A program made the translations under genes and the position numbers. From the NCBI GenBank assembly GCA_034421575.1, contig DAOUKG010000032.1, forward strand, positions 6,873-70,872: a DNA stretch of 64,000 nucleotides, in the 5' to 3' direction. The notes under the pieces were generated by a model. That model did not search any database. It saw nothing but the letters and a program-made list of their open reading frames with translations, and was not told the DNA's origin. Below, in pieces: positions 14,041-52,528 of the stretch. The first letter of the stretch is position 1, and each line of letters starts with the position of its first letter. This stretch comes from Dehalococcoidia bacterium. GTDB lineage: Bacteria; Chloroflexota; Dehalococcoidia; Lucifugimonadales; VXLM01.

Positions 14041-14587
14041 ATGGCATTTGTCCCTGAGGTTGGGTTTATCGAAGAGGAATCCGCTATCAGCATTATGACA
14101 AGCGGCAAGCGATTGGGAAAGCACTCCCGACCGGCGGGCCTGTGGTAATGGGGATATCGCAGATGGCCTTAGCGGTTCCCCGGCTCATGGGCGTATCTGT
14201 GGAGCACTACCTGCAAGTTGCGTGGACAGCGCCCTCAATGGAATGGGAGGTACTCATGGTTCGTCTTTGCAACTACAGGGTCCGCATAGGTGGACGTGCC
14301 GAGTCCATGGGTTCATCACGGTAAAGAGGTTTTATCCTGGCGCTGCGGAAAGTGGCTGCCTCCAGAGCATCTCATCTCGCAGCGCTGGACAGGAAGCACT
14401 TCCCTCAGACAATTCACGGAAGAGTTCGAGTCCCCGCAGGTCTTAGATACAAATGAGTGGGCCAAGGCGTACCGATTTACGAACTTTTCGGTGGGATGTT
14501 CGTATATAGCCCAAGTGGGGAAAACAGCAGGAACAAGACCGTCAAGAATCCCACGAAGATCAGGAACATTACGGAGTACCTGTTGGT

Positions 14588-15553: not shown

Positions 15554-16630
15554 CTATGCGGGTGGGGACGAGAGCAGGGCAATCGTCTCTTCGGCGGCAG
15601 AGATGCCGCTGGACAGCGCCCCGTTGACCAGGGGAACTCGCGTGTAATCGCCCGCCAGGAAGAGATTGGGCAGGTCCTGTGCGAGGTCGCGACGGGCGTT
15701 TGCCACCGACCTGAACATCCCGGGCGGCCCCTTACACACCGCTATCTTCCATCGGTAGACGCGAGTGAACAGTCCCTCGTCGTCCCCCGGAAGGGCCGAA
15801 CCGGGCGGCGGGTTCCGGCGAATGTCCCGCAGCAACTCGCGCTTGACCTCCTCATCATCCAGTTCCAGCAATTGCTTTGCGCGCTCGCGCCCCGCGATCA
15901 GGTCCAACGTGCTCTTCCCCGGTGGCACGCAGTCCGGCAGGTTGATGGACCGGTCCAGAATGAGGGGAGTCTCGTCTTCCGGGTAGATCGCGCCGTGCCA
16001 GCCGGGAGGCAGCGGTGGATGGGCCAGTCCCATCACCAACCGGCACGCGGAGGAGTAGGTGACGTTGCTCAGGGTCTCACGGACCCTCTGTGGAAGTCCG
16101 GGAATGATCTCCAGCGCTACCGGAGCGGGGACCGCGCAGATGACCGCGTCGGCCTCGATGGTCTCGCCGTCGATCACCACGCCCGTCACGCCCCGCTCCC
16201 CGACCAGTACCTTCCTCACGGGCGTCGAAACGCGGGTGACGTCTGCGCACGCATCGCGCAGGGCGCGGGCAAGTGCGCCCGCCCCTTTCTCCGGCTGCAT
16301 GAGCTTGTGCGGTCGCAGAAACGTGTTGGCCAAGTACCCCCTGATGTACGCCTGGCTGGAGAAAGCGACATAGTCCAGCACGCCATTCTCAACGAACCCG
16401 CTGAGGGTGACACGGAGGGACTCGGACGCGCCCGTCCTCTCCAGGTACTCGCCGAAGGTCTCGTCTCCGTCGATCTCGGCCATGCGGCTGTTGCTGGCGA
16501 ACGTCAGGTAGTCGGCTTGGCGAAAAACCTTATAGATCAGCTTCATCGCCCCCCAGGACAGCAGTCCCAGGTTCGCAAACGCGCTCAGGTTGCTGACCAT
16601 GCCGGGAATGGACGGAGCAGCCGTGGTGAC
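15554..16630 (-). pseudogene. FAD-dependent oxidoreductase (amine oxidase/protoporphyrinogen oxidase-like), N-terminally truncated
   Basis: ADAVICAVPAP, LFLAGDY and NGALSSG are present. The N-terminal GxGxxG dinucleotide motif is absent; upstream sequence is occupied by the divergent 16656 gene. Confidence 0.75.
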
Positions 16631-16655
16631 ACGTGCGCTCAACCATCGGAGCCAA

Positions 16656-19600: not shown

Positions 19601-20162
19601 GGCCAGAGAGACCTTGGAAGAGCATCTAAACCGCGCACGCGAGACCGTCGATCAGGCTGTGAGTGATGGCGTCATAGAATTTGAGGGAGACCGTTGGAGC
19701 AAGTCGACATATTCGCTTGAAGATATTGATGAGAACATTGCGGTTGACAAGATACGCAATTTCAGGGAGGCCCACGATATCCTCGAGGAGATTGAGGTGT
19801 CCATCAAGGATGATCGCGTCAATCGGCGTGAAGAACTTTCTAGAGACTGGGGAACGCTGGTTGGGGCCGTGGGAGAAAATCCCAACGTAGCCGTGGAAGT
19901 TCTTGAAGATCTATCTACCACGTTCAAGTTAGCCAGTCGCGATGACTCTCTAGACATCCGCGTTATGGAGGACTGTGTCAGCAGGATCAGGAATTTCCAG
20001 TCTGGCGATCCTCAAGACCTTGTTCCGACTCCCTCGGAGGGTCCCTCCAGAACCCTAGAAGATTTTTTGCGCTTCTCTTCTGGCATTGGAGAACTTTCAC
20101 CACATGAAAGACGCAGTAACGAACTGAGACACATGCTGTTGCGATCCAAGGGGGAGGAATAG
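16656..20162 (+). CDS. Large mostly alpha-helical protein (~1168 aa) with two internal cadherin-like beta-sandwich domains
   Basis: GGAG RBS before ATG 16656. A Pro-rich linker precedes two repeats, ADATLSDLQLS...VTVMAEDGATTQTYILSVER and DDATLRRLES...EVTAEDGVTTHTYRLTL. No signal peptide. Lower GC than the flanks. Confidence 0.8.
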   Translation: MSDDACSELDLILNNEVAIPQFPRYPARAPLPILRQAILRDIHHSESLLIAVLKTWFVSQLELRGLIVEHLRKTDTSINYPNFEAYQLDGYWPFDDWSSLCEEIVEANGSLDRNEVALMLCCVTGKLPMSLAAGAVAESRTMKSDRLQQTLTYLKALPANDPQWEGDVPTFLSSIVELSEEKAAERANAVSLEELITTISEFREQHCQQLEYFEFDISDWTEPTHFNASVLAEVHGLLGRLSSCFDEHSSIPQQGSSVRETRRLNREREGVEDRIIGVKSELDQLLTVDGGPDEPPQKPTPDGASPPPDIQSEVSDANADATLSDLQLSERSFEFDPIEANHTVVLPNHADSLVIAPVPSVPTATVDVSVESREHGEISCVQDDSGKHRVENIGVGQTTVSITVMAEDGATTQTYILSVERVPSDDATLRRLESTAGELEFDWALREYNIDVANGDKELSVAFETNHSSATVEATLERPDDTTTDLIASENGVCEVPGLGGGQSTLSLEVTAEDGVTTHTYRLTLNTRLRPTSDHAALMWSLVADDDLAGAYWISKSLANQGLIAAHLPTLLKAVQVARWLSPESRDFVEDLFATVSQTDDSFGDDAYVMLGLAASIQPSIIAPETNLLAWLVSPSRFPSLGMLVSSVRDFANRGYALGPEHIRGDEWHRHLQNLIGEASSDAHTWLGDSNKRFHNLVRANNVWRRLCTDGGMLNNLLSRVAEDHRSEVARVQSDVEALGEEAFRLELINETDRSLHSNAKSDITGAARDWLHRGIIQATELASRWCDLVDRENESRTQSQNQWLSDHVAKLRTDITSVFQDVFNELSRATSDSSQSDLAASSLCVARSIHLLLDYLSINHNADHLSPVSPVVANLHKVVQNSDFAGLGIAPGSHIETALSRRLLWIPTVDLGDDGLPVNAKEPIDLQRAEVDWFSIDTPLELVVRTRISNGDFRFLGLLSFDPETGQPVKPEATYVTDLAAARETLEEHLNRARETVDQAVSDGVIEFEGDRWSKSTYSLEDIDENIAVDKIRNFREAHDILEEIEVSIKDDRVNRREELSRDWGTLVGAVGENPNVAVEVLEDLSTTFKLASRDDSLDIRVMEDCVSRIRNFQSGDPQDLVPTPSEGPSRTLEDFLRFSSGIGELSPHERRSNELRHMLLRSKGEE

Positions 20163-20169
20163 GTTCGTC

Positions 20170-21930
20170 ATGTCGAGTTCACCATCAACCCGTGATTTAG
20201 AAACGGAAAAGTTGGTAGACGATTGGGAGCTTCTAAAGCAGGAACGGCCTCGTGACCGGACCGGCCCAACATCCAAGGGTCGAATCGGCACAGTGCTTAG
20301 CTTCCTTGGCCTACGCTATCAGAACGAAAGTGAACTCACGCTCCGGAAAGAAGACCGGTCAGGAAGACGATGGGTCTACTTTACGTTTGAGACCGACCCA
20401 CAAGGCAGCAACGCCGTTCGTGGGGCTCCTCAGTTTGGCTCTCAGGCCAATGGCACCTATCACATCTTCTGTCTTTGGGAGGATGCCAGGCCAGATCGGA
20501 TCTTTCGCAACACAAGCATCGACAAGGCGGCAAGGGGCAATCAGGGCGCGGTCGTTGTTCTCTATCTCAGTGCTCTGACCGAACCCGAACGTCATGACGT
20601 ACGCCGGGAGTCTTGGGCGAACGACCTTACTGTCCTGATAGTTGACGAAGTGCTGTTGACATACCTTGCCCGTTGTGAGGGTGATAGATTCAGGCCCTTT
20701 CTCGAAGTCTCCCTTCCGTTTACAGCAGCCAACCCTTACAACCCGGAAACGGCTGGTTGGGGCTCGAGGGTGGCTCCGGAAATGTTCTATGGTCGTGAGC
20801 AGCTGGAACGTGAGATTGTCTCGCGAGGTGGCACCTCACTGATTTTTGGAGGTAGACAGCTCGGTAAGACGGCCTTGCTCAGACATGTGGAGGAAGGGTT
20901 CTCCGACCCCGACCTACGACGATTCGCATGGTTCATTGATCTGAAGGCAGCAGGCTATGTGCCCGATGCTGAGTCCGCAAAAGACCCTAGTGATATTCTT
21001 GAGGTGCTTCACGACAGCTTTAGACAAGATGACATCCTGGGAGCCGATACGAGCGGTCATAGTCAGGAACAGATGCGTCAGGACATTCTTGACGCCTTCG
21101 AGAACGACAGAGACCTTCAGGTTCTGGCCATGTTCGACGAGTCGGATGCATTTCTTCAACGTGACTGGTCTTCTGGCTCTCCGGTGGTGGAGTCGCTCCG
21201 AGCACTCATGGACGACACTGGCAACAGGTTCAAGGTTGTCTTCGCCGGGCTCCACAACGTACAGCGTTTCGCCAACCGGCCCAACAGTCCGTTCCCCAAT
21301 TTGGGCTTCAACTCCAACACTCCTCGGAGAGGGGGGATCGGGCCCTTAAGGGACCACGAGGCAAGAAACCTCGTAGAGCAACCATTCAGTCTGTTGGGCT
21401 TTAGATTCGAACCCCTCGCAGTTGACAAAATTCTTAGCTATACCAACAGGCATCCTTCATTGATCCAGTTTTTCTGTCATGAGCTTATACAGTCATACAG
21501 GCAGAGCAATCCGGACGGGAGCCCACCATTCACAATTGGAATAGATGAGGTCGACAGGGTGTATCGAACTCAGAGCATACAGGGAGGTATCAAACGGCGA
21601 TTCAAGGCGACCTTCGAACTGGACCCCCGCTACCATGTGATCGCCTTAGCAATGATCCTGGATCAAGAACATCCAACGCAGAGCTGGGGTTTGGACAAGT
21701 TGAGGTCGCACTGCCAGTCCTACTGTCCACTCACGTTCGAGCCGGATAGCCTCAGCAACCTCGAGTTAGCGTCGCTCTTGAACGAATTGATTGGACTGGG
21801 CGTTCTCGCTCAGGATGGAGATTCCTACCGAATGAGAAGTTCACTCATCGCACAAATGTTTGGAAGCGAGGATGAAGTAATTGAAATGCTTGGCGAACTT
21901 GAGGCTGAGGAGCCGTATTCGGTAAGTTGA
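20170..21930 (+). CDS. STAND-class P-loop ATPase with C-terminal winged helix
   Basis: NPY..PEMFYGRE, Walker A GGRQLGKT, Walker B VLAMFDESD, VVFAG sensor, YTNRHPSLIQ (GxP-equivalent), and a wH-like end (LNELIGLGVL). Confidence 0.85.
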   Translation: MSSSPSTRDLETEKLVDDWELLKQERPRDRTGPTSKGRIGTVLSFLGLRYQNESELTLRKEDRSGRRWVYFTFETDPQGSNAVRGAPQFGSQANGTYHIFCLWEDARPDRIFRNTSIDKAARGNQGAVVVLYLSALTEPERHDVRRESWANDLTVLIVDEVLLTYLARCEGDRFRPFLEVSLPFTAANPYNPETAGWGSRVAPEMFYGREQLEREIVSRGGTSLIFGGRQLGKTALLRHVEEGFSDPDLRRFAWFIDLKAAGYVPDAESAKDPSDILEVLHDSFRQDDILGADTSGHSQEQMRQDILDAFENDRDLQVLAMFDESDAFLQRDWSSGSPVVESLRALMDDTGNRFKVVFAGLHNVQRFANRPNSPFPNLGFNSNTPRRGGIGPLRDHEARNLVEQPFSLLGFRFEPLAVDKILSYTNRHPSLIQFFCHELIQSYRQSNPDGSPPFTIGIDEVDRVYRTQSIQGGIKRRFKATFELDPRYHVIALAMILDQEHPTQSWGLDKLRSHCQSYCPLTFEPDSLSNLELASLLNELIGLGVLAQDGDSYRMRSSLIAQMFGSEDEVIEMLGELEAEEPYSVS

Positions 21931-23199
21931 ATGAATCTCGAGCCACTCGCCTACTCCCTCCCTTCCACACAGTCCTTTGTTCACTCCATTACTGACAACG
22001 ACGACAACGGTGTAAAGGTCGTCTTGCTTCCAGACAATCTAAGCCGCGAAATGGTGGGACGGCTAGTCAGAAATCGATTAGCCGCCCTCAAACTCACTGT
22101 TAGTAGACTCTTCGATCCCGGAGGGGCCAGCCCGGTTTCGGCTAGCGCCAAGGCCATGAATGCCATCTGGCCATCGCCCCGTACGCTCAGAACCGTCCAC
22201 AACCTGCTGTGCTGCACGGATCTCCCCGATATCTTGTACGTTCACCGAATCGGAGCAAGACAAGAGTGGACCGGATTCATCGAGAGTTGGGCGCGGGAAT
22301 ATCGCATACTGAGGAACTCAGGGAACACTGACATTCCGTCCTTGTGCGTGATTGCCAAGTTGAAAGATTTCGAGTTCATCCTGCCAGAGTCCAAATCAGA
22401 CCTCACATTCCATTGGTGGTGGGGCTTTCCATCAATGCTGGAGGTAAGACTCTCATGTAGGATAGCGAGCGAGCAGTTCGATAGAGATGATCCAGCCACC
22501 TCCAGTTGGAGGGAATACGTGCTTCCTGGCCTTGTCGGCAGTGACATACAGCTCGCCGAGCATATGTGGAGCAGGGTCATGGATAGCACCGATCAAACCA
22601 TGAGGGGTCTGTCGGAATACTGGGACCGCCTTGAAAATACAGCGCTCAGCGACTCGATTGATGACGTAATAGAAATCGTCAGGGCCAACCGGGGAACGTA
22701 CGGTGCAGGGCAGGAGCCACCTCTGCATCTGCGCAGACTCTGGGCCAGTGGTGGGCTAATCTACACGCGGGAGTACGGACTTGAGGTTCATCCCGCTTTG
22801 CTGGCTCATCGTGAACTCTGGACTAGTGTTGAACACATGCTATGGCGCGGCCAGTCCGAACTGCTTCTTCCGATAGTTAACGAGATTCGCCTTAGGGTAT
22901 GTCAGGACTTGACTGAAACGTACGGTAGTGACTGGCCAGTCAAATGGGTACCTCCTCACTTTGAGCATGATATCGAGGAGGTCAGCCGCTCTCCTCTAGG
23001 CACTGAACTAAGTCACGTCAGCTACCTCATTCAGAATCTGGGCATGTACAACCATCGCCACGACTTGTATCAGAAGCGATTTCTCGGAGAACTGGTTCTA
23101 ATGGCGAAGACCTTGAGGAATGAAATCGCCCATTACAAGCCTGTCTCATATCAGGACTTTGCAGGACTGTGTGATGAGCGGAACAGGGTGGGGATATAG
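21931..23199 (+). CDS. Hypothetical protein with a C-terminal HEPN-like RxxxxH motif
   Basis: Starts immediately after the ATPase stop; C-terminal LRNEIAHYKPV. HEPN assignment is inferred from the motif and its helical context only. Confidence 0.6.
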   Translation: MNLEPLAYSLPSTQSFVHSITDNDDNGVKVVLLPDNLSREMVGRLVRNRLAALKLTVSRLFDPGGASPVSASAKAMNAIWPSPRTLRTVHNLLCCTDLPDILYVHRIGARQEWTGFIESWAREYRILRNSGNTDIPSLCVIAKLKDFEFILPESKSDLTFHWWWGFPSMLEVRLSCRIASEQFDRDDPATSSWREYVLPGLVGSDIQLAEHMWSRVMDSTDQTMRGLSEYWDRLENTALSDSIDDVIEIVRANRGTYGAGQEPPLHLRRLWASGGLIYTREYGLEVHPALLAHRELWTSVEHMLWRGQSELLLPIVNEIRLRVCQDLTETYGSDWPVKWVPPHFEHDIEEVSRSPLGTELSHVSYLIQNLGMYNHRHDLYQKRFLGELVLMAKTLRNEIAHYKPVSYQDFAGLCDERNRVGI

Positions 23200-23258
23200 T
23201 GAACCGCCGGCATTGTGTTTCCACTTGACGAGGGGTAGGCGCAAGAATAGAGCGACGA

Positions 23259-23531
23259 CTATCGTTTGACGGCCTCCGCGTCTCCCACCACAGGTAGCAG
23301 GATATGTAGCAGGCCCAACTCGGCGGCGAGGTTAAACAGGGAAATGAGATGGCCCGGGTCCGGCTTAGTTCCCTTCTTCCACCGCCATACGCATCGAACG
23401 TTCACGCGCAGGCGGCGGGCAAGCCCCCGCCACGACAGCCCGGCGGCTTCACGGAGTCGCTCCAGCCGCTCAGGGAAGTCTGGAGGGAATCGGGAAGGTT
23501 CCACGTGATAGACGTTCTGTTGACGGCGCAC
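23259..23531 (-). CDS. Small XRE-type HTH protein
   Basis: FPPDFPERLERLREAAGLSWRGLARRLRVNVRCVWRW; GTG start with an upstream GGGAG. Confidence 0.7.
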   Translation of the reverse strand: MRRQQNVYHVEPSRFPPDFPERLERLREAAGLSWRGLARRLRVNVRCVWRWKKGTKPDPGHLISLFNLAAELGLLHILLPVVGDAEAVKR

Positions 23532-23538
23532 CAAGTCG

Positions 23539-23829
23539 CTACTCCCCCCTCCGGGATACAACTATCAGGTCGTCGTCCAACAGGACGCCCAGACCTCCCG
23601 GCACCCTTGTCGCCAGCGCCACTATCGCCAGCATAGCACCGCCGTTGGGCCATCCGCCATCGCGCCAGTACTTCAACTGACGGGGGTCTACTCCCAGACA
23701 GACTGACATCCCCTCCCAGGTCATTCCGGTGATTTCCTTGAGCGCGGTGAGCCTGTCGGAGAAGTCCTCAGGCAGCAGAGACCCGTCGGGCACAAACAGA
23801 TGGGGCAGCAGATGGCGTTCTCTACTCAT
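23539..23829 (-). CDS. Small XRE-type HTH protein (paralog of 23259-23531)
   Basis: LPEDFSDRLTALKEITGMTWEGMSVCLGVDPRQLKYWRDG. Confidence 0.7.
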   Translation of the reverse strand: MSRERHLLPHLFVPDGSLLPEDFSDRLTALKEITGMTWEGMSVCLGVDPRQLKYWRDGGWPNGGAMLAIVALATRVPGGLGVLLDDDLIVVSRRGE

Positions 23830-24064
23830 CGCAGACCATCACGACGAAAAGGTCGTCGAACTCGGAGCACTCCAGAGATTCCATGAGCCGCCGCCTAATC
23901 GACGGCGAAGGGCATCTCCTGCCGTTGATGAGGCGGGAGAGGTGTCCCGAAGAGACTTCGAGCAGATGAGCGAGGTCGTTCTGGGTCATGTTGAGCCGGT
24001 TGAGGCGGTCCCAAACCGCCTCGGCCTTCAGTTGCACCTTCCTAGCGGGGCGCTTACCTGCCAC
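23822..24064 (-). CDS. Cro/XRE-like HTH protein
   Basis: MTQNDLAHLLEVSSGHLSRLINGRRCPS; GTG at 24064 with a GGAGG RBS; overlaps its neighbours. Confidence 0.8.
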   Translation of the reverse strand: MAGKRPARKVQLKAEAVWDRLNRLNMTQNDLAHLLEVSSGHLSRLINGRRCPSPSIRRRLMESLECSEFDDLFVVMVCDE

Positions 24065-24263
24065 GCCTGCCCTCCTTTGCCGGGATTTCGCCACCATCGG
24101 CGGCCAAAGCGGATGCGGAGTCATCCCCCGCAGCGTCCTGCTCGATGAGGGACCGGAAATGAGCGCGAACGATCATGCGGGCCAGGATTTTCAAGCCCTG
24201 CAGACGCATCGCGTTCTGCTCTTTGGTGAGACGAGTGTCTCTGCTCAGGTCTCTTGAATTCAT
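24054..24263 (-). CDS. Small hypothetical protein (first gene of the leftward operon)
   Basis: ATG at 24263; amphipathic helix RLQGLKILARMIVRAHF; its stop overlaps the next start. Confidence 0.45.
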   Translation of the reverse strand: MNSRDLSRDTRLTKEQNAMRLQGLKILARMIVRAHFRSLIEQDAAGDDSASALAADGGEIPAKEGRRGR

Positions 24264-24497
24264 GCGTTGCACCCCGGTGGCGCAGTAGTGATCTTTGGTG
24301 TATGATAAGCGGAACAGTACGTGTGTTCTGTAATATGGCAGTCTAACAGTAGCGCACACCAATGGGCAATAGCAATCGGTGAGTAATATGGGATCATTGA
24401 TAAATTGCTTCCTGTAATGTAACAAGTGTTGACCAACTATTGACCTTTTGAAGGTAGGAGCGTCAATGTGACACCGGAGTCTAACGGGGAGGCAGCT
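24264..24497. promoter_or_regulatory. Divergent promoter/operator region of a phage-like genetic switch
   Basis: AT-rich intergenic region between the leftward cro-like operon and the rightward repressor; TTGACC hexamers are present. Exact sites were not defined. Confidence 0.45.
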
Positions 24498-24902
24498 ATG
24501 AACGAGGAGACAGACCGCCGAGACGAGACCATCGGCCAGATGCTCAGACGGCTGCGGGGCGACATGAGCCTGCGGGGAGTCCAGCGCATCAGCGGCATCT
24601 CGAACGCCTACCTCTCACAGATCGAGAAAGACCTTCGTCATCCGGGACCCAAGGTTCTCAAGAGACTGGCTGCGCTCTACGGTGTCGGTGTCCAGGACCT
24701 GTTCAAGAAGGCCGGATACCTGGAGGAGGGAGAGGAGCCGGAGGTAGACGAGACCGCTGAGGTGGAGAGGGCCTACCAGTACGTCCTGGCCGATCCCGTG
24801 TTTCGCGTTGGAACCAGACCCAGAGGTCCCCTTTCCATCGAGTCGAAGCGTTTCATCGTCGAGCTGTACGAGCGCTACAGCGGGAAGAGGCTGCTCTCGT
24901 GA
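24498..24902 (+). CDS. XRE-family repressor (ImmR/DdrO-like)
   Basis: IGQMLRRLRGDMSLRGVQRISGISNAYLSQIEK...AGYL; GGAGG RBS before ATG 24498. Confidence 0.85.
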   Translation: MNEETDRRDETIGQMLRRLRGDMSLRGVQRISGISNAYLSQIEKDLRHPGPKVLKRLAALYGVGVQDLFKKAGYLEEGEEPEVDETAEVERAYQYVLADPVFRVGTRPRGPLSIESKRFIVELYERYSGKRLLS

Positions 24903-25846
24903 GCGCCGTCACGCTGGACGATTTCTGCCGCCACCTCGTGGACGGTGAACCTCCCAACGAGAGACTCCATCCAACGGGCGTGGCTCGGGAGTTCGTGGGA
25001 TTCTTCGGCCTATCGCCCTTTCCACACATGGACGAGACCGAGTCGCTGCTCAACAGAGCCGTCATCGCTACCGTAGTTCGATCTCATGACATGGCAGGGT
25101 TAAGGGGATATCACACGGGAACGAACATCGGCAGCTATCAGATCGTAATCGACGCGACTGATGGCATCGTGGCCCAGGAGCACACGGTGCTCCACGAGAC
25201 TTACGAGATCATCAAAGAAAGGCTCGGAGACCTCTATACGGATATCGGAGTCCCGCAGGGCAAGAGCATGTGCCGTCAGGCCGACCGGTTCGCCGCTGCG
25301 GTGCTGATGCAGCCCTACTGGTTCTCCCTGTTCGCCACGTCGTCAGGGTTGGACATTATCGCCCTGCAAAAGGCATACGGCCGCGCCTATTCGTCGGTGA
25401 TCTTGAGGCTGGCCGAGGTGATGCGGGATCAGCCGCTCATTGCGGTCCTGTACGAGCGCGGAGAGGCAAGGGAGCCCTACTTTCGGACGACGGCTCCCGT
25501 TGCGCACTTCAGGGCTACGGTCGTAGCCCGCACTCCCGGATTCGGGGCGCGCCACAGCCGCGCGTTGTGCGGAACGAAGGGAGGAATGCCGCGATGGGGA
25601 AGGCCCCTTCCTCCCGGCTCGCTTGCCGAGGGCGTGGCGCTGACGGGCAAGCCGAGCTACGTCGAGAAAGAGCCGGGGTTTGGCGATGTGGCCGTCGCCG
25701 CAAGACCGGTATTCCGGCGGGGACGTTTGAAAAGGATCGTCGTAGTTGCCGTGCCCTATAACGACTGTGCCGTTTTGCTGCGCCAGACCGCAGACCCATC
25801 TTTCGAGTCCGCGCGTCGCCTAGCTGTGGCGGCCGGTCCCTGGTAG
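24899..25846 (+). CDS. ImmA/IrrE-like metallopeptidase (variant zinc motif)
   Basis: HTVLHETYE and QADRFAAAVLM motifs, an HTH-like middle region and a GAF-like C-terminus; GTGA overlap with the repressor. Confidence 0.75.
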   Translation: MSAVTLDDFCRHLVDGEPPNERLHPTGVAREFVGFFGLSPFPHMDETESLLNRAVIATVVRSHDMAGLRGYHTGTNIGSYQIVIDATDGIVAQEHTVLHETYEIIKERLGDLYTDIGVPQGKSMCRQADRFAAAVLMQPYWFSLFATSSGLDIIALQKAYGRAYSSVILRLAEVMRDQPLIAVLYERGEAREPYFRTTAPVAHFRATVVARTPGFGARHSRALCGTKGGMPRWGRPLPPGSLAEGVALTGKPSYVEKEPGFGDVAVAARPVFRRGRLKRIVVVAVPYNDCAVLLRQTADPSFESARRLAVAAGPW

Positions 25847-25914
25847 TTGCAGGTAGATTGCTAGGTGAGTTATAGTAAGACAATGTCATACTACGGAAGG
25901 CAAAAAGAGAGACG

Positions 25915-26145
25915 ATGCCAGCAATCCCGAGGAACACCAAGACCATCACCTTCTCCCTGCCGCCTGAGATGGCGGAGCAGGTGCATGAAGTGATGCGGGA
26001 AGAGGGCCGGACGATGAGCGAACTGATCCGAGAGGCTCTACGCAACTACATGGAGGAGCGGGAATGGCTCAGGGATATCCGGTCCCAGAGGCTCAGAGAA
26101 CGTGAGAAAGAACGGGAAGACGTCAGAAGGAGGACTGAAAAGTGA
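25915..26145 (+). CDS. Ribbon-helix-helix (CopG-like) protein
   Basis: KTITFSLPPEMAEQVHEVMREEGRTMSELIREALRNY. Confidence 0.85.
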   Translation: MPAIPRNTKTITFSLPPEMAEQVHEVMREEGRTMSELIREALRNYMEEREWLRDIRSQRLREREKEREDVRRRTEK

Positions 26146-27770
26146 TCGATAAGCAACCTAAAGACTACACACCGGCAGCCCTCTACGCCAGAGTTTCCAG
26201 CGACCGTCAGGATGTTGACCTGTCCGTCGCCGCACAGTTGAGGGCGCTCCGGGAGCACGCCGAAAAGAACGGTTACATGGTTGTGCGCGAGTATGTCGAC
26301 GAGGCCGAAAGCGGACGCATCGCCGACAGGCCCCAGTTCCGCAAGATGCTGGACGAAGCCTCAAAAGCCAGTGCCCCCTTCCAGGAGATTCTCGTCTGGA
26401 AATTCTCCCGCTTCACGCGGAAGCGGGAGCACGCCGTCGCTTTCAAGTCCATGCTTCGAAGACGCGGTATTCGAGTGACATCGATCACTGAGCACGCCGA
26501 CGACTCGCCCACAGGCAAGCTCATGGAAGCCATCATCGAGAGCGTGGACGAGTTCTATAGCGAGAACTTGGCCCAAGAGGTCACGCGGGGGTTGCGTGAG
26601 GCCGCCTCTCGTGGCTTCTGGATGGGCACCAACGCCCCATTTGGCTACAAGAAAGTCTACGTCCAAGACGGAGCCAAGAAGCGCCCGAAGCTGGAGCCGA
26701 ACCCGCCAGAAGATGCAGTGGTCAAGCGCATGTTCGACATGGCCCTGCAGGGCATGAGTTCACTCGACATCGCCAGGAACCTCAACGCCGAAGGCATCGC
26801 CAGTCCCAAAGGGAAGCAGTGGCTCAAGAGTACCGTCCACACAACTATCAACAACGAAGCATACACAGGCACCGTAGTCTGGGGAGTCAATGCCAAGGAC
26901 GGCGCTCCGCCGGTACGCGTCGAGAAGGCGTTCCCCGCCATCGTCTCCAAGCGCAAGTTCCAGCAGGTCGCCAACCTGCTGAAATCTCGCGCACCTAAGA
27001 GCGTACATCCCCGCCGGGCGTCCAGCCCTTACCTGCTCAGCGGACTGGCAAAGTGCGAGACATGCGGCAAGGCCCTCACTGCAGCCGAGGCCAAAAGCGG
27101 CAAGTACACCTACTACGTCTGCCACTCCCTGCTCAAGAAGGGTAAGGGAACGTGCAGGACTCCCAGGCTCAACTCGAAGAACTTTGAGGGCCTGATCGTC
27201 TCCAACATCCGCGACAATATCCTCACTGAGAGCAACATCCGCGACCTTGTGAAGATAGTGGACGGGGAGATGGACGGGGTTGCCCGCGAGCAGCGCAAGA
27301 GACTGAAGGTAATCGAAGAGGAGCTTGAGGACGTGAAGAAACGGCTGGACAAAATCTGGCACGCCATCGAGACGACCGATATCGAGATGTCCCAAGCCTC
27401 GGACCGCATCAAAGAGAACTGGGAGCGCAAGGAGAAGCTGGAAACCTCGGCTGAGGAGGCGCGGGCGGCTCTGTCGAAGCGGAGAGTTACGCTGGACAGG
27501 ATGGCGAAGATCACGGACTTCGCACAGGAAATGAGGGAGTATCTAAAGAAAAGCGACCTAACCCAGTCGAGGGCGTTCATACGGTCGTTCGTCAAGGAGG
27601 TTTCGGTCAGGCCCGGCAAGGCCACGATCCACTACACAATGCTCACTCCGGAGGATAGTCCCACATTAGGCGGCGACACCGCAGAGGTCATCCTGAACGG
27701 AGGAGTTATGAATATGGGAGTCTCAAGTGGGGAAGGAGGGACTCGAACCCTCACGCCTTGCGGCACATGA
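26142..27770 (+). CDS. Large serine recombinase (integrase)
   Basis: Catalytic ALYARVSS, RPQF..ML, recombinase domain PFGY, zinc ribbon CETCG..YYVC..C, coiled coil. The last ~14 codons lie antisense within tRNA-Leu. Confidence 0.95.
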   Translation: MIDKQPKDYTPAALYARVSSDRQDVDLSVAAQLRALREHAEKNGYMVVREYVDEAESGRIADRPQFRKMLDEASKASAPFQEILVWKFSRFTRKREHAVAFKSMLRRRGIRVTSITEHADDSPTGKLMEAIIESVDEFYSENLAQEVTRGLREAASRGFWMGTNAPFGYKKVYVQDGAKKRPKLEPNPPEDAVVKRMFDMALQGMSSLDIARNLNAEGIASPKGKQWLKSTVHTTINNEAYTGTVVWGVNAKDGAPPVRVEKAFPAIVSKRKFQQVANLLKSRAPKSVHPRRASSPYLLSGLAKCETCGKALTAAEAKSGKYTYYVCHSLLKKGKGTCRTPRLNSKNFEGLIVSNIRDNILTESNIRDLVKIVDGEMDGVAREQRKRLKVIEEELEDVKKRLDKIWHAIETTDIEMSQASDRIKENWERKEKLETSAEEARAALSKRRVTLDRMAKITDFAQEMREYLKKSDLTQSRAFIRSFVKEVSVRPGKATIHYTMLTPEDSPTLGGDTAEVILNGGVMNMGVSSGEGGTRTLTPCGT

Positions 27771-37008: not shown

Positions 37009-38391
37009 GTGCCGCTGAAAGATAGCCCCTCGACACAGGAACTGCGTAGCGCCGCCAACCGTCATGTTTGGCTGGACGATCACGACTGGAGCAAGGCGGA
37101 GGCGGACGGCGGGCCGATGGTCGCCGTCGAGGGCGACGGCGTCAGGGTGACGGACTCGGAGGGGCGGTCGTGGATCGACGTGACGGGCGGACAGGGGGCC
37201 GTCAACATAGGGTACGGTCGTGCCGAGATAGGCGACATCGTCTACGAGCAGACTGCCGCCATCAACTACATGCCGCAGCGGTCTGCCATTCCCTCCACCA
37301 TCGACCTCGTCCGCAAGCTGGCGGAGATCACGCCGGGCACGCTGAGCCGCACGTTTCCCGTCAGCAGCGGGTCGGAGGCGAACGAGACGGCGATCAAGGT
37401 CGCGAGGGCGTACCACAAGCGGAACGGCGAATCAGGGCGCTACAAGATTATCAGCAGGTTCGGGTCGTATCACGGCGACCTGGGCCTCGTGCAGTGGCTC
37501 GGCTCGTCTCCAGACCACCGCAATGCCGATTACGAACCGGCCTATCCGGGGATGGTGTACGCGCCTCAGCCGAACGTGTACCGGTGCGGCAAGGACGACA
37601 TCACGCCGTCGGAGTGCGCGGTGCGCTCCGCGAAGGCGGTCGAGGAGCTCATCAAGTTCCATCAGCCGAGCACGGTGGCGGCGGTGATCGCCGAGCCGGT
37701 GACGAACGACGGGGTCGTTCCCGGGTCGGAATACTGGCCGATGCTCCGCGAGATATGCAACGAGTACGGCGTGGTGCTCATAGCCGACGAGGTGACGACC
37801 GGGCTGGGACGTACGGGCAAGATGTTCGGGGTAGACCACTGGGGGGTAGAGCCGGACATCATGACGATGGCGGGCGGGCTGAGCGGCGGATACATGCCCA
37901 TCGGCGCGACCACGGCAACGACGGCGATTGCGGACCGCTTCGCTGGGACGGACTCTTACTTCAGGCACGTCTTCACGTTCGCGGGACACCCGGTGGCGGC
38001 GGCGGTGGCGCTCAAGAGCATAGAGATTGTCGAGTCGGAGGGGTTGGTGGAGAATGCCGCGCAGACGGGAGAGTACCTCTTGGAGGCGCTCACGACGCTG
38101 ATCGGCGACCATCCCATCGTCGGAGACGTTCGGGGGCTGGGGCTGCTCTGCGCCGTCGAGCTGGTGAGCGACCGCGCCACGAAGGCCGGGTTCGATCCTG
38201 AAATGCGGATGTCCGAGCGGATGACGGCCAAGTTCAGCGAACACGGTCTCATTCTTCCCGTTCGCGGGAACGTCATAGCGATAACGCCGCCACTTACGAT
38301 CACGCGCGCCGAGATCGATGAGATCATGCACGGGATCGACCTCGCCCTGTGGGAGATCGAGGGCGAGTTGGGCATTGCGTCGATGGCCTGA
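37009..38391 (+). CDS. Class-III aminotransferase homolog lacking the PLP-binding lysine
   Basis: SGSEANE, SYHG and DEVTTGLGRTG are present, but PDIMTMAGGL replaces the canonical AKG; GTG start with a GAGG RBS. Confidence 0.85.
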   Translation: MPLKDSPSTQELRSAANRHVWLDDHDWSKAEADGGPMVAVEGDGVRVTDSEGRSWIDVTGGQGAVNIGYGRAEIGDIVYEQTAAINYMPQRSAIPSTIDLVRKLAEITPGTLSRTFPVSSGSEANETAIKVARAYHKRNGESGRYKIISRFGSYHGDLGLVQWLGSSPDHRNADYEPAYPGMVYAPQPNVYRCGKDDITPSECAVRSAKAVEELIKFHQPSTVAAVIAEPVTNDGVVPGSEYWPMLREICNEYGVVLIADEVTTGLGRTGKMFGVDHWGVEPDIMTMAGGLSGGYMPIGATTATTAIADRFAGTDSYFRHVFTFAGHPVAAAVALKSIEIVESEGLVENAAQTGEYLLEALTTLIGDHPIVGDVRGLGLLCAVELVSDRATKAGFDPEMRMSERMTAKFSEHGLILPVRGNVIAITPPLTITRAEIDEIMHGIDLALWEIEGELGIASMA

Positions 38392-38418
38392 AGGGTCTGG
38401 GAGGAACACGACAAGCCA

Positions 38419-39798
38419 ATGAACACTCTGTCGAAGACCGAAGAGCTACGCCGCGCCGCGCTCGACCACCTGTGGATGCACAACAGGGGCTGGATCGACA
38501 TGGCCGAGCAGGGCGAGCCGGCCATCATGGTCGAGGGCGACGGCATCCGGGTGAAGGACTCGGAGGGCCGCACGTGGATCGACCCGAACGGCGGGTACGT
38601 CTCGGTGAACGTCGGGTACGGGCGGAAGGAGATAGCCGAGGCCGCGCGCGAGCAGATGCGGAAGCTCTCGTTCCAGCCGCCGGGCGCGGCGACGGAGCCG
38701 CTCATCCGCGTCTCGGAGAAGATCGCGGAGATCGCGCCGGGGTCGATGGAGCGCGTCTACCCCGTCAACGGCGGTTCGGAGTCGACGGAGACGGCGATCA
38801 AGATCGCGAGGGCCTACCACAGGCGCAACGGGGAGCCCGGCAGGTACAAGGTCATCAGCCGTCGCAACTCGTACCACGGCGCGACGGGCGGCGTGCTGGG
38901 TATGGCGGGGAGCGCGGCGGCGGACCGCTCCGACTACGAGCCGTTCTATCCCGGCATGATCTACGCCCCGCAGCCGAACCCGTACCGGTGCGAGTCGGGA
39001 GCGACGAATGCGTCGGACTCCGCGGTGTACTGCGCTCAGCAGGTCGAGGAACTCATCATCGCTCACAATCCCGACACGATCGCGGCGTTCATCGGGGAGC
39101 CGATCGCGAGCAACGCGGGCAACGCCGTTCCGGGAGACGAGTACTGGCCGATGATCCGCGACATCTGCGACCGGTACGGCGTCCTGCTGGTGTCGGACGA
39201 GGTGATATGCGGGTACGGACGCTCGGGAGAGTGGTTCGGGATACAGAACTGGGACGTCGTCCCGGACGTGATGGGATCGGCCAAGGGCATCGTGAGCAGC
39301 TATCTCCCGTTTGCCGCCGCGGTCGCCAAGAAGGAGATCGCGGACGCCTTCGAGGGTGAGGACAACTACTTCCGCATGGCAAACAGCTTCGGAGGCCACC
39401 CGGTCGCCGCCGCCGCCGCGCTGAAGAACCTTGAAATCATCGAGGAGGAGGGCCTCGTAGAGAACTCCAAGCGCATGGGCGAGTATTTCCGGTCGCAGCT
39501 CCGGGAGCTGCAGGACGACTACTCGTTCATCGGCGACGTGCGCGGCATCGGACTGATGAACACCGTCGATATGGTCTCCGACCACGACACCAAGGCCGAT
39601 TTCGACCCGGCGCTCCGGGTGCAGGACCGGCTCGGCGACAAGTTCTATGATCGGGGGATGATCCTGAGACCGACAGGACAGTTCCTGAACATCGCGCCGC
39701 CGCTCTGCGTGACAAGCGAGGACATAGACGCGATAGTGAACATTTTGGATGACTCATTCCGTGAGCTAGTTGATGAGGTGCCGCAGCTAAAGGGGTAA
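38419..39798 (+). CDS. Class-III (PLP) aminotransferase
   Basis: GGSESTE, SYHG, DEVICGYGR and PDVMGSAKG (Lys intact). Confidence 0.93.
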   Translation: MNTLSKTEELRRAALDHLWMHNRGWIDMAEQGEPAIMVEGDGIRVKDSEGRTWIDPNGGYVSVNVGYGRKEIAEAAREQMRKLSFQPPGAATEPLIRVSEKIAEIAPGSMERVYPVNGGSESTETAIKIARAYHRRNGEPGRYKVISRRNSYHGATGGVLGMAGSAAADRSDYEPFYPGMIYAPQPNPYRCESGATNASDSAVYCAQQVEELIIAHNPDTIAAFIGEPIASNAGNAVPGDEYWPMIRDICDRYGVLLVSDEVICGYGRSGEWFGIQNWDVVPDVMGSAKGIVSSYLPFAAAVAKKEIADAFEGEDNYFRMANSFGGHPVAAAAALKNLEIIEEEGLVENSKRMGEYFRSQLRELQDDYSFIGDVRGIGLMNTVDMVSDHDTKADFDPALRVQDRLGDKFYDRGMILRPTGQFLNIAPPLCVTSEDIDAIVNILDDSFRELVDEVPQLKG

Positions 39799-39844: not shown

Positions 39845-40537
39845 ATGACGAACCGTCGCAACAATCGAGGCGGGGGACGCAGGGAACGGGTGGCTATCTT
39901 CATTGACGGGAGCAATCTCTATCACAGCCTCCAGGAGAACTGCGGGCGATTCGACGTGGACTTCGCGGCGCTTGGGCAGAGGCTGACCGATGGCCGGGAC
40001 CTGCTCCGCATCTACTACTACAATGTGCTCCGCGACGCGGATCGCGACCCGCAGGCGTACCAGGACCAGCAGAAGTTCCTGACGGCCCTCAACAACACTC
40101 CATACGTCGAGACGCGGCTGGGCACCTCGAAGATGCGGGGCCAGGTGGCGGTGGAGAAGGGTGTCGACATCATGGTCGCGACGGACCTGCTCAGGTTCGC
40201 GTGGGACGACCTCTATGACGTTGCGGTCCTCGTGAGCGGGGACGGCGACTTCGCGTATGCCGTGGAGACCGTCAAGAACATGGGCAAGCACGTTGAGGTC
40301 GCGGCGTTCACCGCCAACTTGTCACAGGAGCTTGCCGCCGTCGCGGACGAGCGTCACTTCTTCACGCCCGACTATTTTGCGGATATCTGGAGCAGGAGCC
40401 GTCGTGGTCCGCGTTTCTCACAGGGCCAACATGGCAGGCGGGAACAGGATGGGGACCAGGCGTCGGAGGGTCAGCAGCGCTCGCACGGGGCGCGACGATT
40501 CCTCGACAGGTTTCGCGGCGGCAGGGGCGGTTCGTAG
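39845..40537 (+). CDS. NYN domain (LabA/DUF88) protein
   Basis: IFIDGSNLY, EKGVD and LVSGDGDF. Confidence 0.92.
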   Translation: MTNRRNNRGGGRRERVAIFIDGSNLYHSLQENCGRFDVDFAALGQRLTDGRDLLRIYYYNVLRDADRDPQAYQDQQKFLTALNNTPYVETRLGTSKMRGQVAVEKGVDIMVATDLLRFAWDDLYDVAVLVSGDGDFAYAVETVKNMGKHVEVAAFTANLSQELAAVADERHFFTPDYFADIWSRSRRGPRFSQGQHGRREQDGDQASEGQQRSHGARRFLDRFRGGRGGS

Positions 40538-49653: not shown

Positions 49654-51684
49654 ATGATTCTCCAAGACCGCCAAATGACTTTGAATGAACTGGACGAGTC
49701 TGCTGAACTCGGGCACAGTCTCATGATAGATCATTCGTTTCCAGAGACATTCGCCGACGAACTTGCTCGTCGCGAAGTGTTCAACAAACACCTCTTCCGT
49801 CCTAATACGTATCTGCACAAGTGGTGGGCGCGGCGTTGCGGCACAATGTTCCGGACAATACTCAAACAGTTCGTGCCCGGAACCGAACGGCGTGATTACT
49901 ATGCGCCGGGGGGGCTCGAAGGCAAAACCGTACTGGACCCGATGATGGGGGGTGGCACAACTCTTCATGAAGCGATTCGATTGGGCGCCAATGTGATAGG
50001 AGCGGACATTGATCCTATCCCGGTCGTGCAGGCGCGGACCTCCCTCAGCTATGCCACGACGGAAGGCCTACGGGCCGCGTTCAATCACTTTCATGCCAAC
50101 CTCTACAGTAGTTTGGGACACTACTTCATAACTGAATGCCCAACCTGTCAGAAAACAGTCGATATTCAGTACACCCTGCAAGGGTCGCGTAAAGTATGTG
50201 GTTGTAGGGAAGTCATACAAATCGACCAATATGACTTGCGTCATGAGGCTGATAGGACGATAAGCATTTCTCCCAGCGATATGGGCATTCGTGACAACCA
50301 TGATCAAGAGGCGTCAGATTCTAACACATTACGTTTGATTACGAAATCTGAAACAAAATGTCCAAACTGCGGACAGAAATATCGAGATCTGCTTGACTTG
50401 CCCTTTTATGAACGTTATTCGCCAATAGCGATTGTTGCCGCTTGTGTTGAGCACGGCATCTTTTTCCGTGCCCCTGATGACGCAGACCGACAGCGCATCA
50501 AGCAGGCCGATGAGAGGCGACATGAGTTGAATATGGGTCCGATTGAGGACTTTCGCGTGATAGATGGGCCGAAAGCTGGCGACCTGCTAAAGCGTAATGT
50601 TCACTCGTATCTTGATCTCTTCTCGTCCCGACAGCTCTTATACCTTCATCAGTCTATTCGACAATTGCGAGAATACGAAGAGGTTGAGAGGCTCAATCTA
50701 GCGATGCTCGTCTCGGCGTCTCTCGAATTCAATGCGATGCTCTGTGGCTACAAAGGCTGGTACAAACGTCGTCCAGGCGCGATTCGACACGTCTTCGCCT
50801 TGCACGCATACTCTTTCCCATACACCGCGTTGGAGAATAATCCGATCAATCCTCGTAAATCATCGGGTAACTTGCAATTGCTGTTTCGTGATCGCATTGA
50901 GCGCGGTCGCAAATGGGCAGCCCTGCCGATTGAACGAAGAATCGGAGAAGACGGCAAAAGCCAATTGGTCAAGATGCCAGGAGAATTGGATGCCGGCCTT
51001 GAAGTTTTCGATCAGGCCGATCTGACATACGGACTGCGGAAGTTTTGGCTCATTTATGGCGACTCTCAAGACTTGCCCGTCGACAGCCGCTCCGTAGACC
51101 TCATAGTGACTGACCCGCCCTACTATGACAGTGTACAGTACAGTGATCTTGCGGCCTTCTTCCGAGTTTGGTTGACACGCTTGCTTCCAGACGAACTTGA
51201 ATGGAGCTATGACCAGTCCAATAGCGCGGTCGCGACGAATGGCACGAGTGACGGTAGCAGTTTTACAAGAGTGTTGTCGAGAATCTTTGCCGAATGCGCA
51301 CGCGTGTTGAAGAGTCAGACGGGTCGCATGGTGTTTACCTTTCATCACTGGGATCCCGCTGCGTGGGCAGAACTGACGATAGCACTTAAGACCGCTGGCT
51401 TTAGGCTGGTGAACTCATATGCGGTATACTCTGAGCATCCTATCTCGGTTCATATCAGAGATTTGAACGCAATCACCCATGACAGTATTCTTGTCCTTGC
51501 TCTTGACAGCGATAATCAAGATACCCAGTGGTCAGTCCCAACCCGCATTAATACCGATGATAGTGAAACGTTTTGCAGACAATGCGGCGCGACTCTTGGT
51601 TGGTTGTTAGATACTCAATTGTCTCCGTCCGAGATACGTACGATTTGGAAAGAGTTGATTGAGGAAGACTACATTGTCAACTAA
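49654..51684 (+). CDS. Amino-DNA methyltransferase (DUF1156-like, with Cys clusters)
   Basis: LHKWWARR, motif I LDPMMGGGT, CxxC clusters, motif IV TDPPYY; lower GC. Confidence 0.88.
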   Translation: MILQDRQMTLNELDESAELGHSLMIDHSFPETFADELARREVFNKHLFRPNTYLHKWWARRCGTMFRTILKQFVPGTERRDYYAPGGLEGKTVLDPMMGGGTTLHEAIRLGANVIGADIDPIPVVQARTSLSYATTEGLRAAFNHFHANLYSSLGHYFITECPTCQKTVDIQYTLQGSRKVCGCREVIQIDQYDLRHEADRTISISPSDMGIRDNHDQEASDSNTLRLITKSETKCPNCGQKYRDLLDLPFYERYSPIAIVAACVEHGIFFRAPDDADRQRIKQADERRHELNMGPIEDFRVIDGPKAGDLLKRNVHSYLDLFSSRQLLYLHQSIRQLREYEEVERLNLAMLVSASLEFNAMLCGYKGWYKRRPGAIRHVFALHAYSFPYTALENNPINPRKSSGNLQLLFRDRIERGRKWAALPIERRIGEDGKSQLVKMPGELDAGLEVFDQADLTYGLRKFWLIYGDSQDLPVDSRSVDLIVTDPPYYDSVQYSDLAAFFRVWLTRLLPDELEWSYDQSNSAVATNGTSDGSSFTRVLSRIFAECARVLKSQTGRMVFTFHHWDPAAWAELTIALKTAGFRLVNSYAVYSEHPISVHIRDLNAITHDSILVLALDSDNQDTQWSVPTRINTDDSETFCRQCGATLGWLLDTQLSPSEIRTIWKELIEEDYIVN

Positions 51685-52528
51685 ACCAGGCAATCGACCG
51701 ATTGAAATTTTTGGTTACCCCATATGGAACCGGACTAAGGAGGCGCAAGACGCTCGTAGACGTTACTGGTGTCCATTCCAAGAAGTCCAATGCACGAAGA
51801 AGAGTCGACTCATTGATTTTCCTTTTGGAGTTTGTTCTGCGGAACATGGTGGTGGATTTCGCGCGATTTGCCCGAATCGCTTTGAGGAACAAGGCTCAAT
51901 TCATGGCGTTTCAAAAGTTATTGAAGACGTCACGTTACATTACTTTGGAGATTCCAACAACATTATTGTCTTTCCTGAAGTCAACCTTCCCAATATCGGC
52001 AACATTGACTACGTTCTTGTGAGACACAAGCCCATGAAGCCCGAAGTTGATGACTTTATATCTGTCGAATTCCAGTCCAATTCTACGACAAGCACAAGAG
52101 GGCTGGTTGATGGAATGACCGAATTCCTTCAAGGGGATGATATCCAGAGCGAATCATACAAATTCGGTATGAACACATATGATTCTATAAAACGTGCAGT
52201 AACTCAGCTCATAAATAAAGGCATTGTATACGAACTATGGGATACGAAATGTTATTGGGTTATCCAAGAATATATATACACTAACTTAGTAAATAGGTAC
52301 GGTTTCAAGACAGAGGGATATTCAGCAAATCATGCCTCTCGCTTCGCACTGTACAATCTTGTTCCAAAAGGTAATAGACTGTCCTTGAAAGGTACGCGAT
52401 TCGTCTCCACCACTGTGGACGAGGTGTACCGGGCGATGCGAAATAACCCTAGTATTCCAAAGAAGGATGAGTTTGTGAACAAACTGAATGCTAAACTGCG
52501 GCTTGAGCTGAGTATACATACCGGCTGA
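51674..52528 (+). CDS. NotI-like type II restriction endonuclease
   Basis: CPF..C.K..GVCS..CPNRF (four Cys), GNIDYVLV and VEFQS; TTG start with a GAGGA RBS overlapping the MTase end. Confidence 0.8.
   Translation: MSTKPGNRPIEIFGYPIWNRTKEAQDARRRYWCPFQEVQCTKKSRLIDFPFGVCSAEHGGGFRAICPNRFEEQGSIHGVSKVIEDVTLHYFGDSNNIIVFPEVNLPNIGNIDYVLVRHKPMKPEVDDFISVEFQSNSTTSTRGLVDGMTEFLQGDDIQSESYKFGMNTYDSIKRAVTQLINKGIVYELWDTKCYWVIQEYIYTNLVNRYGFKTEGYSANHASRFALYNLVPKGNRLSLKGTRFVSTTVDEVYRAMRNNPSIPKKDEFVNKLNAKLRLELSIHTG

Follow-up and report, generated by a model that had tools for sequence, protein, structure and literature searches.

A tandem pair of class-III aminotransferase genes from a Dehalococcoidia bacterium, one lacking the Schiff-base lysine, as candidate subunits of a heteromeric enzyme

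Aminotransferases are generally treated as homo-oligomers. Elsewhere among fold-type I enzymes, serine palmitoyltransferase (LCB1/LCB2) and glycine decarboxylase (GcvPA/GcvPB) each combine a live subunit with a paralogous subunit that has no catalytic lysine (Lys), the second chain completing a single active site. Recent work with SerTA of Serratia sp. ATCC 39006 described an aminotransferase encoded by tandem genes, one for the Lys-less Ser4 and one for the live Ser5 (PMC11726168). SerTA has one active site per heterodimer, residues of its dead chain are needed for activity, and its authors stated in December 2024 that no heterooligomeric aminotransferase had been studied earlier (PMC11726168). 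The present analysis concerns a 64,000-nucleotide stretch of Dehalococcoidia DNA (assembly GCA_034421575.1, contig DAOUKG010000032.1), here called the window, in which two adjacent genes, gene 1 and gene 2, encode class-III aminotransferase homologs. Gene 1 lacks the Schiff-base Lys, and the two products are probably subunits of one heteromeric enzyme.

A comparable arrangement is known outside the fold as well, in the trypanosomatid deoxyhypusine synthase, where a dead paralog, the "prozyme", is kept because the heteromer is the active enzyme (PMC3663545). For class III itself, the omega-transaminase of Thermomicrobium roseum (T. roseum) provides the structural reference: Lys289 is catalytic, Asp260 contacts the ring nitrogen of the cofactor pyridoxal 5′-phosphate (PLP), and Gly121 and Ala122 contact its phosphate, while the other subunit contributes Thr323/Tyr324 and Phe89, and catalysis cannot do without the dimer (PMC6502798). 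A 2022 study of the subfamily of structure 3N5M likewise describes the known amine transaminases as at least dimers with sites built from both monomers, and heterodimers go unmentioned in it.

The gene pair and its missing lysine

The two genes and the codons at the Schiff-base position, numbered as in the T. roseum enzyme (PMC6502798), are as follows.

37009..38391, forward strand: gene 1 (A-type; predicted dead subunit), class-III aminotransferase homolog without the Schiff-base Lys, 460 amino acids, GTG start at 37009
38392..38418, forward strand: spacer of 27 nt between genes 1 and 2, containing a GGGAGGA Shine-Dalgarno-like motif
38419..39798, forward strand: gene 2 (B-type; predicted catalytic subunit), class-III aminotransferase with Lys289, Asp260 and Arg417, 459 amino acids
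37873..37875, forward strand: GGC codon for Gly289 of gene 1, where the catalytic Lys (Lys289 of the T. roseum omega-transaminase) belongs
39283..39285, forward strand: Lys289 codon of gene 2, position derived from alignments

The layout of the pair looks like an operon. The open reading frame (ORF) of gene 1 opens at 36949, and its likeliest true start is the GTG at 37009, because close orthologs are all 460 amino acids long and align at 100% coverage; this is also where the first-pass annotation, made from the sequence without database searches, had begun the gene. Both proteins match Pfam PF00202 (Aminotran_3) over its full length (gene 1, E 7e-94 and 315 bits; gene 2, E 2e-98 and 330 bits; cut-off 30.5), and they share 49% identity across 449 amino acids. 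Their top solved homologs are 6io1, 6s54, 5kr6 and 3n5m (E 1e-84 to 1e-96), the best for both being the T. roseum omega-transaminase (PDB 6IO1, E 1e-95). No NCBIfam equivalog was found at or above its cut-off, and hence the pair receives no substrate assignment from that source.

When the two proteins are aligned at the Schiff-base position, PDIMTMA-G-GLSGGY of gene 1 stands against PDVMGSA-K-GIVSSY of gene 2. The GGC codon of gene 1 is three substitutions away from AAA and AAG alike. The first-pass annotation had already noticed that Lys is gone from the first copy and kept in the second, had thought a single sequencing error unlikely, and had described the first copy as otherwise full length, with the PLP Asp (DEV, D260) and the Thr loop FTFAGHP (residues 322-328) in place; the alignments and the codon bear out all of these observations. 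Across the family, the column is K in 151/151 Lys-bearing members and in 143 of the best 150 representatives of 50%-identity clusters, most of the remaining ones being fragments. Clearly, the absence of Lys in gene 1 is not chance. Gene 1 thus belongs to PF00202 in structure and not in catalysis, and its annotation as an aminotransferase in its own right is unwarranted.

Conservation, adjacency and ancestry of the lysine-less gene

The loss of Lys is widely shared among the closest relatives of gene 1. Among the 120 closest 90%-identity clusters, 35 are without Lys (31 with Gly, 1 with Ser and 3 with Asn), and single clusters represent up to 284 member sequences. All 27 clusters with at least 72% identity to gene 1 are Lys-less (26 Gly, 1 Ser), and eight further Lys-less clusters (5 Gly, 3 Asn) are found at 58-64% identity. 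The homologs are annotated as coming from Dehalococcoidia, Chloroflexota or SAR202 metagenome-assembled genomes. By the Nei-Gojobori method, the ratio of non-synonymous to synonymous substitution rates (dN/dS) is 0.14 for gene 1 against its 89%-identical ortholog at locus L129 (synonymous divergence, dS, 0.44) and 0.19 for the Lys-less gene in an independent pair of loci, L001/L005; the corresponding values for gene 2 are 0.094 (window versus L129) and 0.077 (L001/L005). The Lys-less copy is therefore under somewhat relaxed, yet clearly purifying selection, and the Lys-less clade retains 160 of 207 family-conserved columns. Gene 1 is no lone, relaxed copy among orthologs that all keep their Lys, which is the picture that would have told against the pseudo-enzyme proposed in the first-pass annotation.

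These data bear directly on whether gene 1 could be a decaying pseudogene, or an artefact of sequencing or assembly, next to an aminotransferase that functions as a homodimer. Its catalytic Lys is gone, its non-synonymous rate is about 1.5-2.5 times that of gene 2, and real relics are known in the family. One of them, protein P0124 (locus L132, 5001-6293), is a solitary A-type protein with Ile in place of Lys, flanked by DDE transposases. Its SGGSE phosphate loop, YHG motif, Thr loop and N-terminus are gone as well, and it is a natural example, within this family, of a lost partner and lost selection. None of this decay is visible in gene 1, and the usual signs of a pseudogene (a broken ORF, relaxed selection and the decay of several invariant motifs) were looked for in it and not found. 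Moreover, a full-length ORF is found throughout dozens of clusters, with hundreds of sequences among them, as far out as about 60% identity, and the dN/dS values, the retained columns and a codon that differs from Lys at all three bases all stand against decay or error. The pseudogene reading is effectively refuted, and in either form the explanation is barely credible: gene 1 is neither an error nor a pseudogene. The change of Ser122 to Ala in many dead subunits was also considered as a sign of decay and rejected, since the active T. roseum enzyme carries Ala122 (PMC6502798). Farther out in the class, homologs P0166 and P0219 (about 40% identity) have Asn and Asp in place of Lys, and Lys loss across class III may be wider than has been noticed.

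A second line of evidence comes from gene order. Nine intact Lys-less loci were examined, at 61-89% identity to gene 1, and a Lys-bearing class-III paralog directly adjoins the Lys-less gene in 9/9 of them. The Lys-less gene comes first and the Lys-bearing gene second in the window, L129, L001, L005, L002/L003, L004 and L133, and the states are reversed in L130 and L131, where it is the first gene that has Lys, with Asn in the second. Called gaps in the pairs with the Lys-less gene first run from -62 to +103 nt, the value of -62 (L001) reflecting an over-extended start call for the second gene. Other neighbours vary from locus to locus and include the amidase, luciferase-like monooxygenases, an Eco57I-like gene, an Opp-type ABC transporter and amidohydrolases, so that the paralog is the sole constant neighbour among the loci examined. 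For comparison, a background of 80 generic class-III loci of at most 55% identity was drawn from GTDB genomes; among the matches listed, all 80 had Lys and 4/80 had an adjacent second class-III aminotransferase, which sets the difference from the Lys-less loci at p = 1e-9 (Fisher). Live and Lys-less paralogs are thus encoded together and co-inherited, as is characteristic of heteromers with a dead subunit. The first-pass annotation had asked whether Lys-less orthologs sit next to an active paralog and evolve under purifying selection; they do, and its idea of a pseudo-enzyme partnered with that paralog gains support from conservation, adjacency and selection together. Two further searches were negative. 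A scan of metagenome contigs with a degenerate DNA pattern for the Lys-less motif returned 40 loci, none of them an aminotransferase, the matches being due to chance, and no Rosetta-stone fusion of two class-III domains was present among the long hits P0264, P0266 and P0176, whose extra domains are unrelated.

The ancestry of the pair was followed with a bootstrapped neighbour-joining tree of 66 sequences, which splits an A clade, holding all first genes, from a B clade, holding all second genes. Gene 1 is nearer to Lys-bearing, 460-amino-acid A-type proteins elsewhere (61-64%) than to its own neighbour (48-49%), and the same figures dispose of the local tandem duplication implied by the first-pass annotation. 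Genes 1 and 2 represent two old paralog lineages and are not recent duplicates. Tandems of A and B are common in SAR202, often with Lys on both sides; such a both-Lys tandem was verified in L088, and ten further A/B cluster pairs, putatively on the same contig because their longest contigs are identical in length, have members that fall in the A and B clades respectively. The A/B tandem is older than the loss of Lys.

The commonness of both-Lys tandems (L088 and the ten putative pairs), along with the ability of a Lys-bearing A-type gene to stand alone, as at L086, is what one would expect if A and B were two enzymes, each a homodimer of its own, working on consecutive or alternative substrates in one pathway, a Lys-less protein surviving as a scaffold or chaperone for some protein other than its paralog. 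Against this, no third gene is common to all Lys-less loci, the paralog alone being constant. This explanation is accordingly considered quite unlikely.

The tree also shows how Lys was lost. The Lys-less proteins with Gly or Ser form one clade (67% bootstrap) and their partners form one clade too, and the two branch alike: L002 first, then L133, then L001/L005, and then the window and L129. From this matching order it follows that, ever since the loss, both genes of the pair have been passed on together. The A-type protein is the dead one in the clade of the window and in L004, and the B-type protein is the dead one in L130 and L131; the partner has K in every case, and Lys is never lost from both. 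A loss in A and a loss in B can only be separate events. Within B, the Asn proteins L130_g2 and L131_g2 each stand beside different Lys-bearing B proteins. Within A, the Asn group (L004_g1 and P0046) joins the Gly clade in just 7% of replicates; nevertheless, the A lineage may have lost Lys just once, from K through N and S to G by one-base steps, because the Asn group shares several derived residues with the Gly clade (M88, a basic residue at 91, A122, G293, S337 and T430). The total therefore comes to between two and four independent losses. Clearly, the loss has been recurrent and reciprocal, affecting A in certain lineages and B in different ones.

Two unlike sites and the proposed heteromer

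The residues around the cofactor, and those that would reach across the dimer interface, differ between the two proteins in ways that are best followed from five features.

37786..37788, forward strand: Asp260 of gene 1, partner of the PLP pyridine nitrogen, retained (D in 34/34 of the Lys-less clade)
37270..37287, forward strand: MPQRSA loop of gene 1, residues 88-93, corresponding to the Phe89 loop that lines the partner active site
37972..37992, forward strand: FTFAGHP loop of gene 1, residues 322-328, whose Thr323/Phe324 putatively reach into the PLP site of the partner
38257..38259, forward strand: Pro417 of gene 1, in place of the flipping Arg that binds the substrate carboxylate (P in 27/34 of the Lys-less clade)
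39385..39387, forward strand: Ser323 of gene 2, within the relaxed trans loop MANSFGGHP, predicted to face the dead site

Much of the PLP pocket survives in the dead protein. D260, G121-S122 and Y154 are present in genes 1 and 2 alike, and throughout the Lys-less clade G121, H155, G156, E229 and D260 are found in 34/34 sequences, with Y154 nearly invariant. Other pocket positions have changed: K289G, S293G and S294G, I263T (34/34), T158L (33/34), Ala or Thr157 to Asp (28/34), Y62 to Q, L or H, and the R417P change listed above, at a position that is Arg in 121/151 reference sequences. Because the replacements are themselves conserved, the pocket has been remodelled and not decayed.

A pocket of this kind could conceivably serve two other ends. 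In one, gene 1 would act independently and without catalysis, as a homodimeric protein that binds PLP, pyridoxamine 5′-phosphate (PMP) or an amine (as sensor, cofactor store or regulator) and merely shares a transcript with gene 2; the near-intact set of cofactor contacts, Lys aside, and the conserved replacements at 263, 158 and 157 are just what such a binding protein might keep. An independent role leaves unexplained, however, the live paralog beside all nine Lys-less genes, the alternation of the loss between A and B, and a trans Thr loop that is invariant in the dead protein and relaxed in its partner; furthermore, gene 1 consists of a single PF00202 domain with no DNA-binding or signalling domain attached. 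An independent binding role is therefore unlikely. In the other, gene 1 would be a Lys-independent enzyme, PMP-dependent or of altered chemistry, with another residue as general base. ColD and E1, sugar dehydratases that function without the Lys, offer an analogy, and the remodelled pocket has acquired an acidic D157 and polar Thr263/Thr264. Nonetheless, no conserved His or Lys takes the place of the missing residue, which is Gly, Ser or Asn according to lineage; a search of the pocket for a migrated lysine found no clade-specific conserved Lys in the dead clade. The substrate-binding Arg417 and the pocket Tyr62 are also gone in this clade, and the use of different replacements in independent losses argues for loss and not for a new catalytic device. 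Lys-independent chemistry is thus very unlikely. An AlphaFold2 model of gene 1, built on a 15-sequence alignment, had a mean predicted local distance difference test score (pLDDT) of 50 and was unusable.

The loops that would act in trans point toward a shared site. In the Lys-less sequences T323 is found in 39/39, and F324 in 34/34 of the Gly/Ser clade, the Asn-type proteins having F or Y. In the 88-93 loop, Q90 is invariant in the Gly/Ser clade, and residue 91 is Arg in 27/34 of the Lys-less clade versus Gly in 125/151 reference sequences. The corresponding loop of the live partners has loosened: residue 323 is Ser in 5/9 of them versus 2/151 of the family (p = 3e-6), and L002 (S-S, and H to N), L004 (T-N) and L130 (T-T) show other departures. 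An A:B dimer in which one site is live and the other dead specifically predicts such an asymmetry, and a homodimer of gene 2 does not. The evidence is modest, since the change from Thr to Ser is conservative.

Taken together, the sequence evidence makes it probable, though by no means certain, that gene 1 and gene 2 each supply a subunit to a heteromeric aminotransferase of the omega type (class III, fold-type I) in which every A:B dimer has a single working site. The enzyme would be either one A:B heterodimer or two of them joined. Its live site would consist of Lys289, Asp260 and the PLP pocket of gene 2 and, in this clade, Arg417. To this site gene 1 would lend its Thr323/Phe324 loop, given in trans to the phosphate of the PLP held by gene 2, and its remodelled 88-93 loop, possibly with Arg91, would complete the substrate pocket. 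The site of gene 1 itself, with Gly289 and Pro417, would not carry out transamination but could bind a cofactor non-covalently, and activity would depend on the dead subunit. The substrate is probably an amine or an omega-amino acid, with pyruvate as acceptor.

Several observations weigh against such a heteromer. Co-inheritance of two operon genes that act independently would also yield adjacency and co-phylogeny, and the T323S change in gene 2, being conservative, could be neutral. The flipping Arg does not follow the live subunit everywhere: in L130 (first gene 1-1290, second gene 1336-2700) Pro is found in the live subunit and Arg is retained in the dead one, and in L004 (first gene 6001-7365, second gene 7400-8779) neither subunit has it. 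Either substrate recognition varies between pairs or the Arg can come from another source, for which basic residue 91 in the trans loop is a possible candidate. The two proteins have diverged to a similar extent at family-conserved columns (47 vs 48 of 207), and thus the function of gene 2 may itself be altered. The solitary Lys-bearing protein of L086 implies that A is not intrinsically dependent on B. Finally, the near-complete PLP pocket of the dead subunit goes beyond what a heterodimer needs, which hints at an additional role.

A bolder version of the heteromer can be offered only tentatively, as a possibility that is on the doubtful side. Here the whole SAR202 A/B family, both-Lys pairs included, would consist of obligate heterodimers, the first heteromeric class-III aminotransferases. 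One site would suffice, and so Lys would have been lost repeatedly (up to four times); the dead pocket would hold PLP, or PLP trapped as an adduct with an amine, and this ligand would act in stabilisation or allostery, and Arg91 in trans would set the specificity of the live site.

Should the heteromer exist, one active site per dimer would be enough in the industrially important class III, and current annotation, which calls both genes "aspartate aminotransferase family protein", would overcount the catalytic capacity of SAR202 genomes. The pair would also provide a natural system for studying the evolution of pseudo-enzymes from symmetric dimers, and a template in biocatalysis for asymmetric transaminase dimers with one subunit engineered purely for substrate binding or stability.

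The wider locus and comparison with known systems

Three features flank the pair.

35436..36860, reverse strand: amidase-signature amidase, 474 amino acids from the ATG at 36860, the ATG preceded by GGAGG
36861..37008: divergent intergenic region of 148 bp between the amidase and gene 1
39845..40537, forward strand: NYN-domain (PF01936) gene, 46 nt downstream of gene 2

The first-pass annotation had called the amidase divergent and had placed it with the aminotransferases in an amide/amine catabolic unit. The amidase sequence is intact, with the PIKD Lys and the GGSSGG and GGGS motifs in its translation, and what is divergent is its transcription. The layout of amidase, two aminotransferases and NYN gene recurs in L129, at 89% identity the only close relative examined, and the amidase is gone at 72-77% identity (L001 and L005) and beyond. 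A conserved catabolic unit of amidase and aminotransferase was accordingly rejected as a general feature, and the association of the amidase with the pair is local at best. The NYN gene is more persistent than the amidase. It lies 3′ of the pair in the window, L129 (10837-11529), L001 (8840-9535) and L005 (3962-4657), and it also follows the pair with the dead B protein in L130 (2725-3405) and the solitary relic in L132 (6681-7412); its dN/dS of 0.08-0.14 reflects purifying selection. On the far side of the amidase, between it and the ankyrin genes described below, the window has a gene for a protein of 323 amino acids (34318-35289, forward strand) made up of only HSDR_N, the N-terminal domain of the type I restriction R subunit. 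The syntenic L129 has no such gene; on the far side of its amidase are genes for MatE, an amine oxidase and a P450.

Elsewhere in the window, three consecutive genes on the reverse strand (27993-33643) encode ankyrin-repeat proteins of 498, 367 and 927 amino acids. Ankyrin-rich gene sets are unusual in free-living bacteria and typical of sponge symbionts, and the genes suggest a host-associated member of the Chloroflexota. The genome is of the SAR202 type and probably marine or from a sponge associate. A type I polyketide synthase of 3490 amino acids (3652-14124, reverse strand), with the order KS-AT-DH-MT-ER-KR-ACP followed by a second KS, adjoins an AMP-binding/PP-binding/acyltransferase protein (43-2166, forward strand); we take its domain order to resemble that of the "Sup"-type synthases for methyl-branched fatty acids in sponge symbionts. 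A low-GC stretch at about 16000-27800 (0.53-0.56, versus about 0.62 elsewhere) is probably an integrated mobile element; within it are genes for a 1190-amino-acid cadherin-like protein and an AAA_22 protein, besides unannotated ORFs, and a large serine recombinase (26142-27770) marks its border. The lowest GC of the window (0.49) occurs at 49654-52528 (forward strand), where a gene for a 676-amino-acid N6/N4 DNA methylase overlaps one for a NotI-like restriction endonuclease; because of this GC and gene content, the region is probably a horizontally acquired restriction-modification module.

Turning to described systems, the closest precedent of the pair is SerTA. Like genes 1 and 2, it is encoded by tandem genes for fold-type I aminotransferases of which one product is Lys-less; in SerTA the heteromer itself is known, whereas that of the pair is predicted. 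SerTA, a heterotetramer, differs in belonging to the sugar-aminotransferase (DegT-like) class, where genes 1 and 2 are class III. Ser4 is truncated at both ends, while gene 1 is full length with a PLP pocket that is otherwise complete. Finally, SerTA is part of a secondary-metabolite cluster with a carrier protein, whereas the pair belongs to a widespread family with recurrent, reciprocal loss of Lys.

The remaining systems resemble the pair in one respect or another. The T. roseum omega-transaminase (6IO1) and the related 6S54, 5KR6 and 3N5M share the fold of genes 1 and 2 and nearly the same numbering (K289, D260 and G121, with T323, Y324 and F89 in trans), but they assemble as homodimers or homotetramers in which both sites of each dimer are live and identical, and gene 1 has neither K289 nor the flipping Arg. 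LCB1/LCB2 and GcvPA/GcvPB belong to other families, the alpha-oxoamine synthases and the P-proteins of glycine cleavage; their dead subunits have largely lost the PLP-binding residues, and they are ancient, fixed arrangements in place of repeated recent losses. The deoxyhypusine synthase prozyme has an unrelated fold and cofactor, is eukaryotic and is encoded by unlinked genes. Full-text literature searches found no heteromer of a class-III or omega-transaminase and no mention of the pair in the SAR202 literature. As far as these searches reach, an arrangement of two proteins around a single site has not yet been described for class III, and it is of a kind already known in other fold-type I families.

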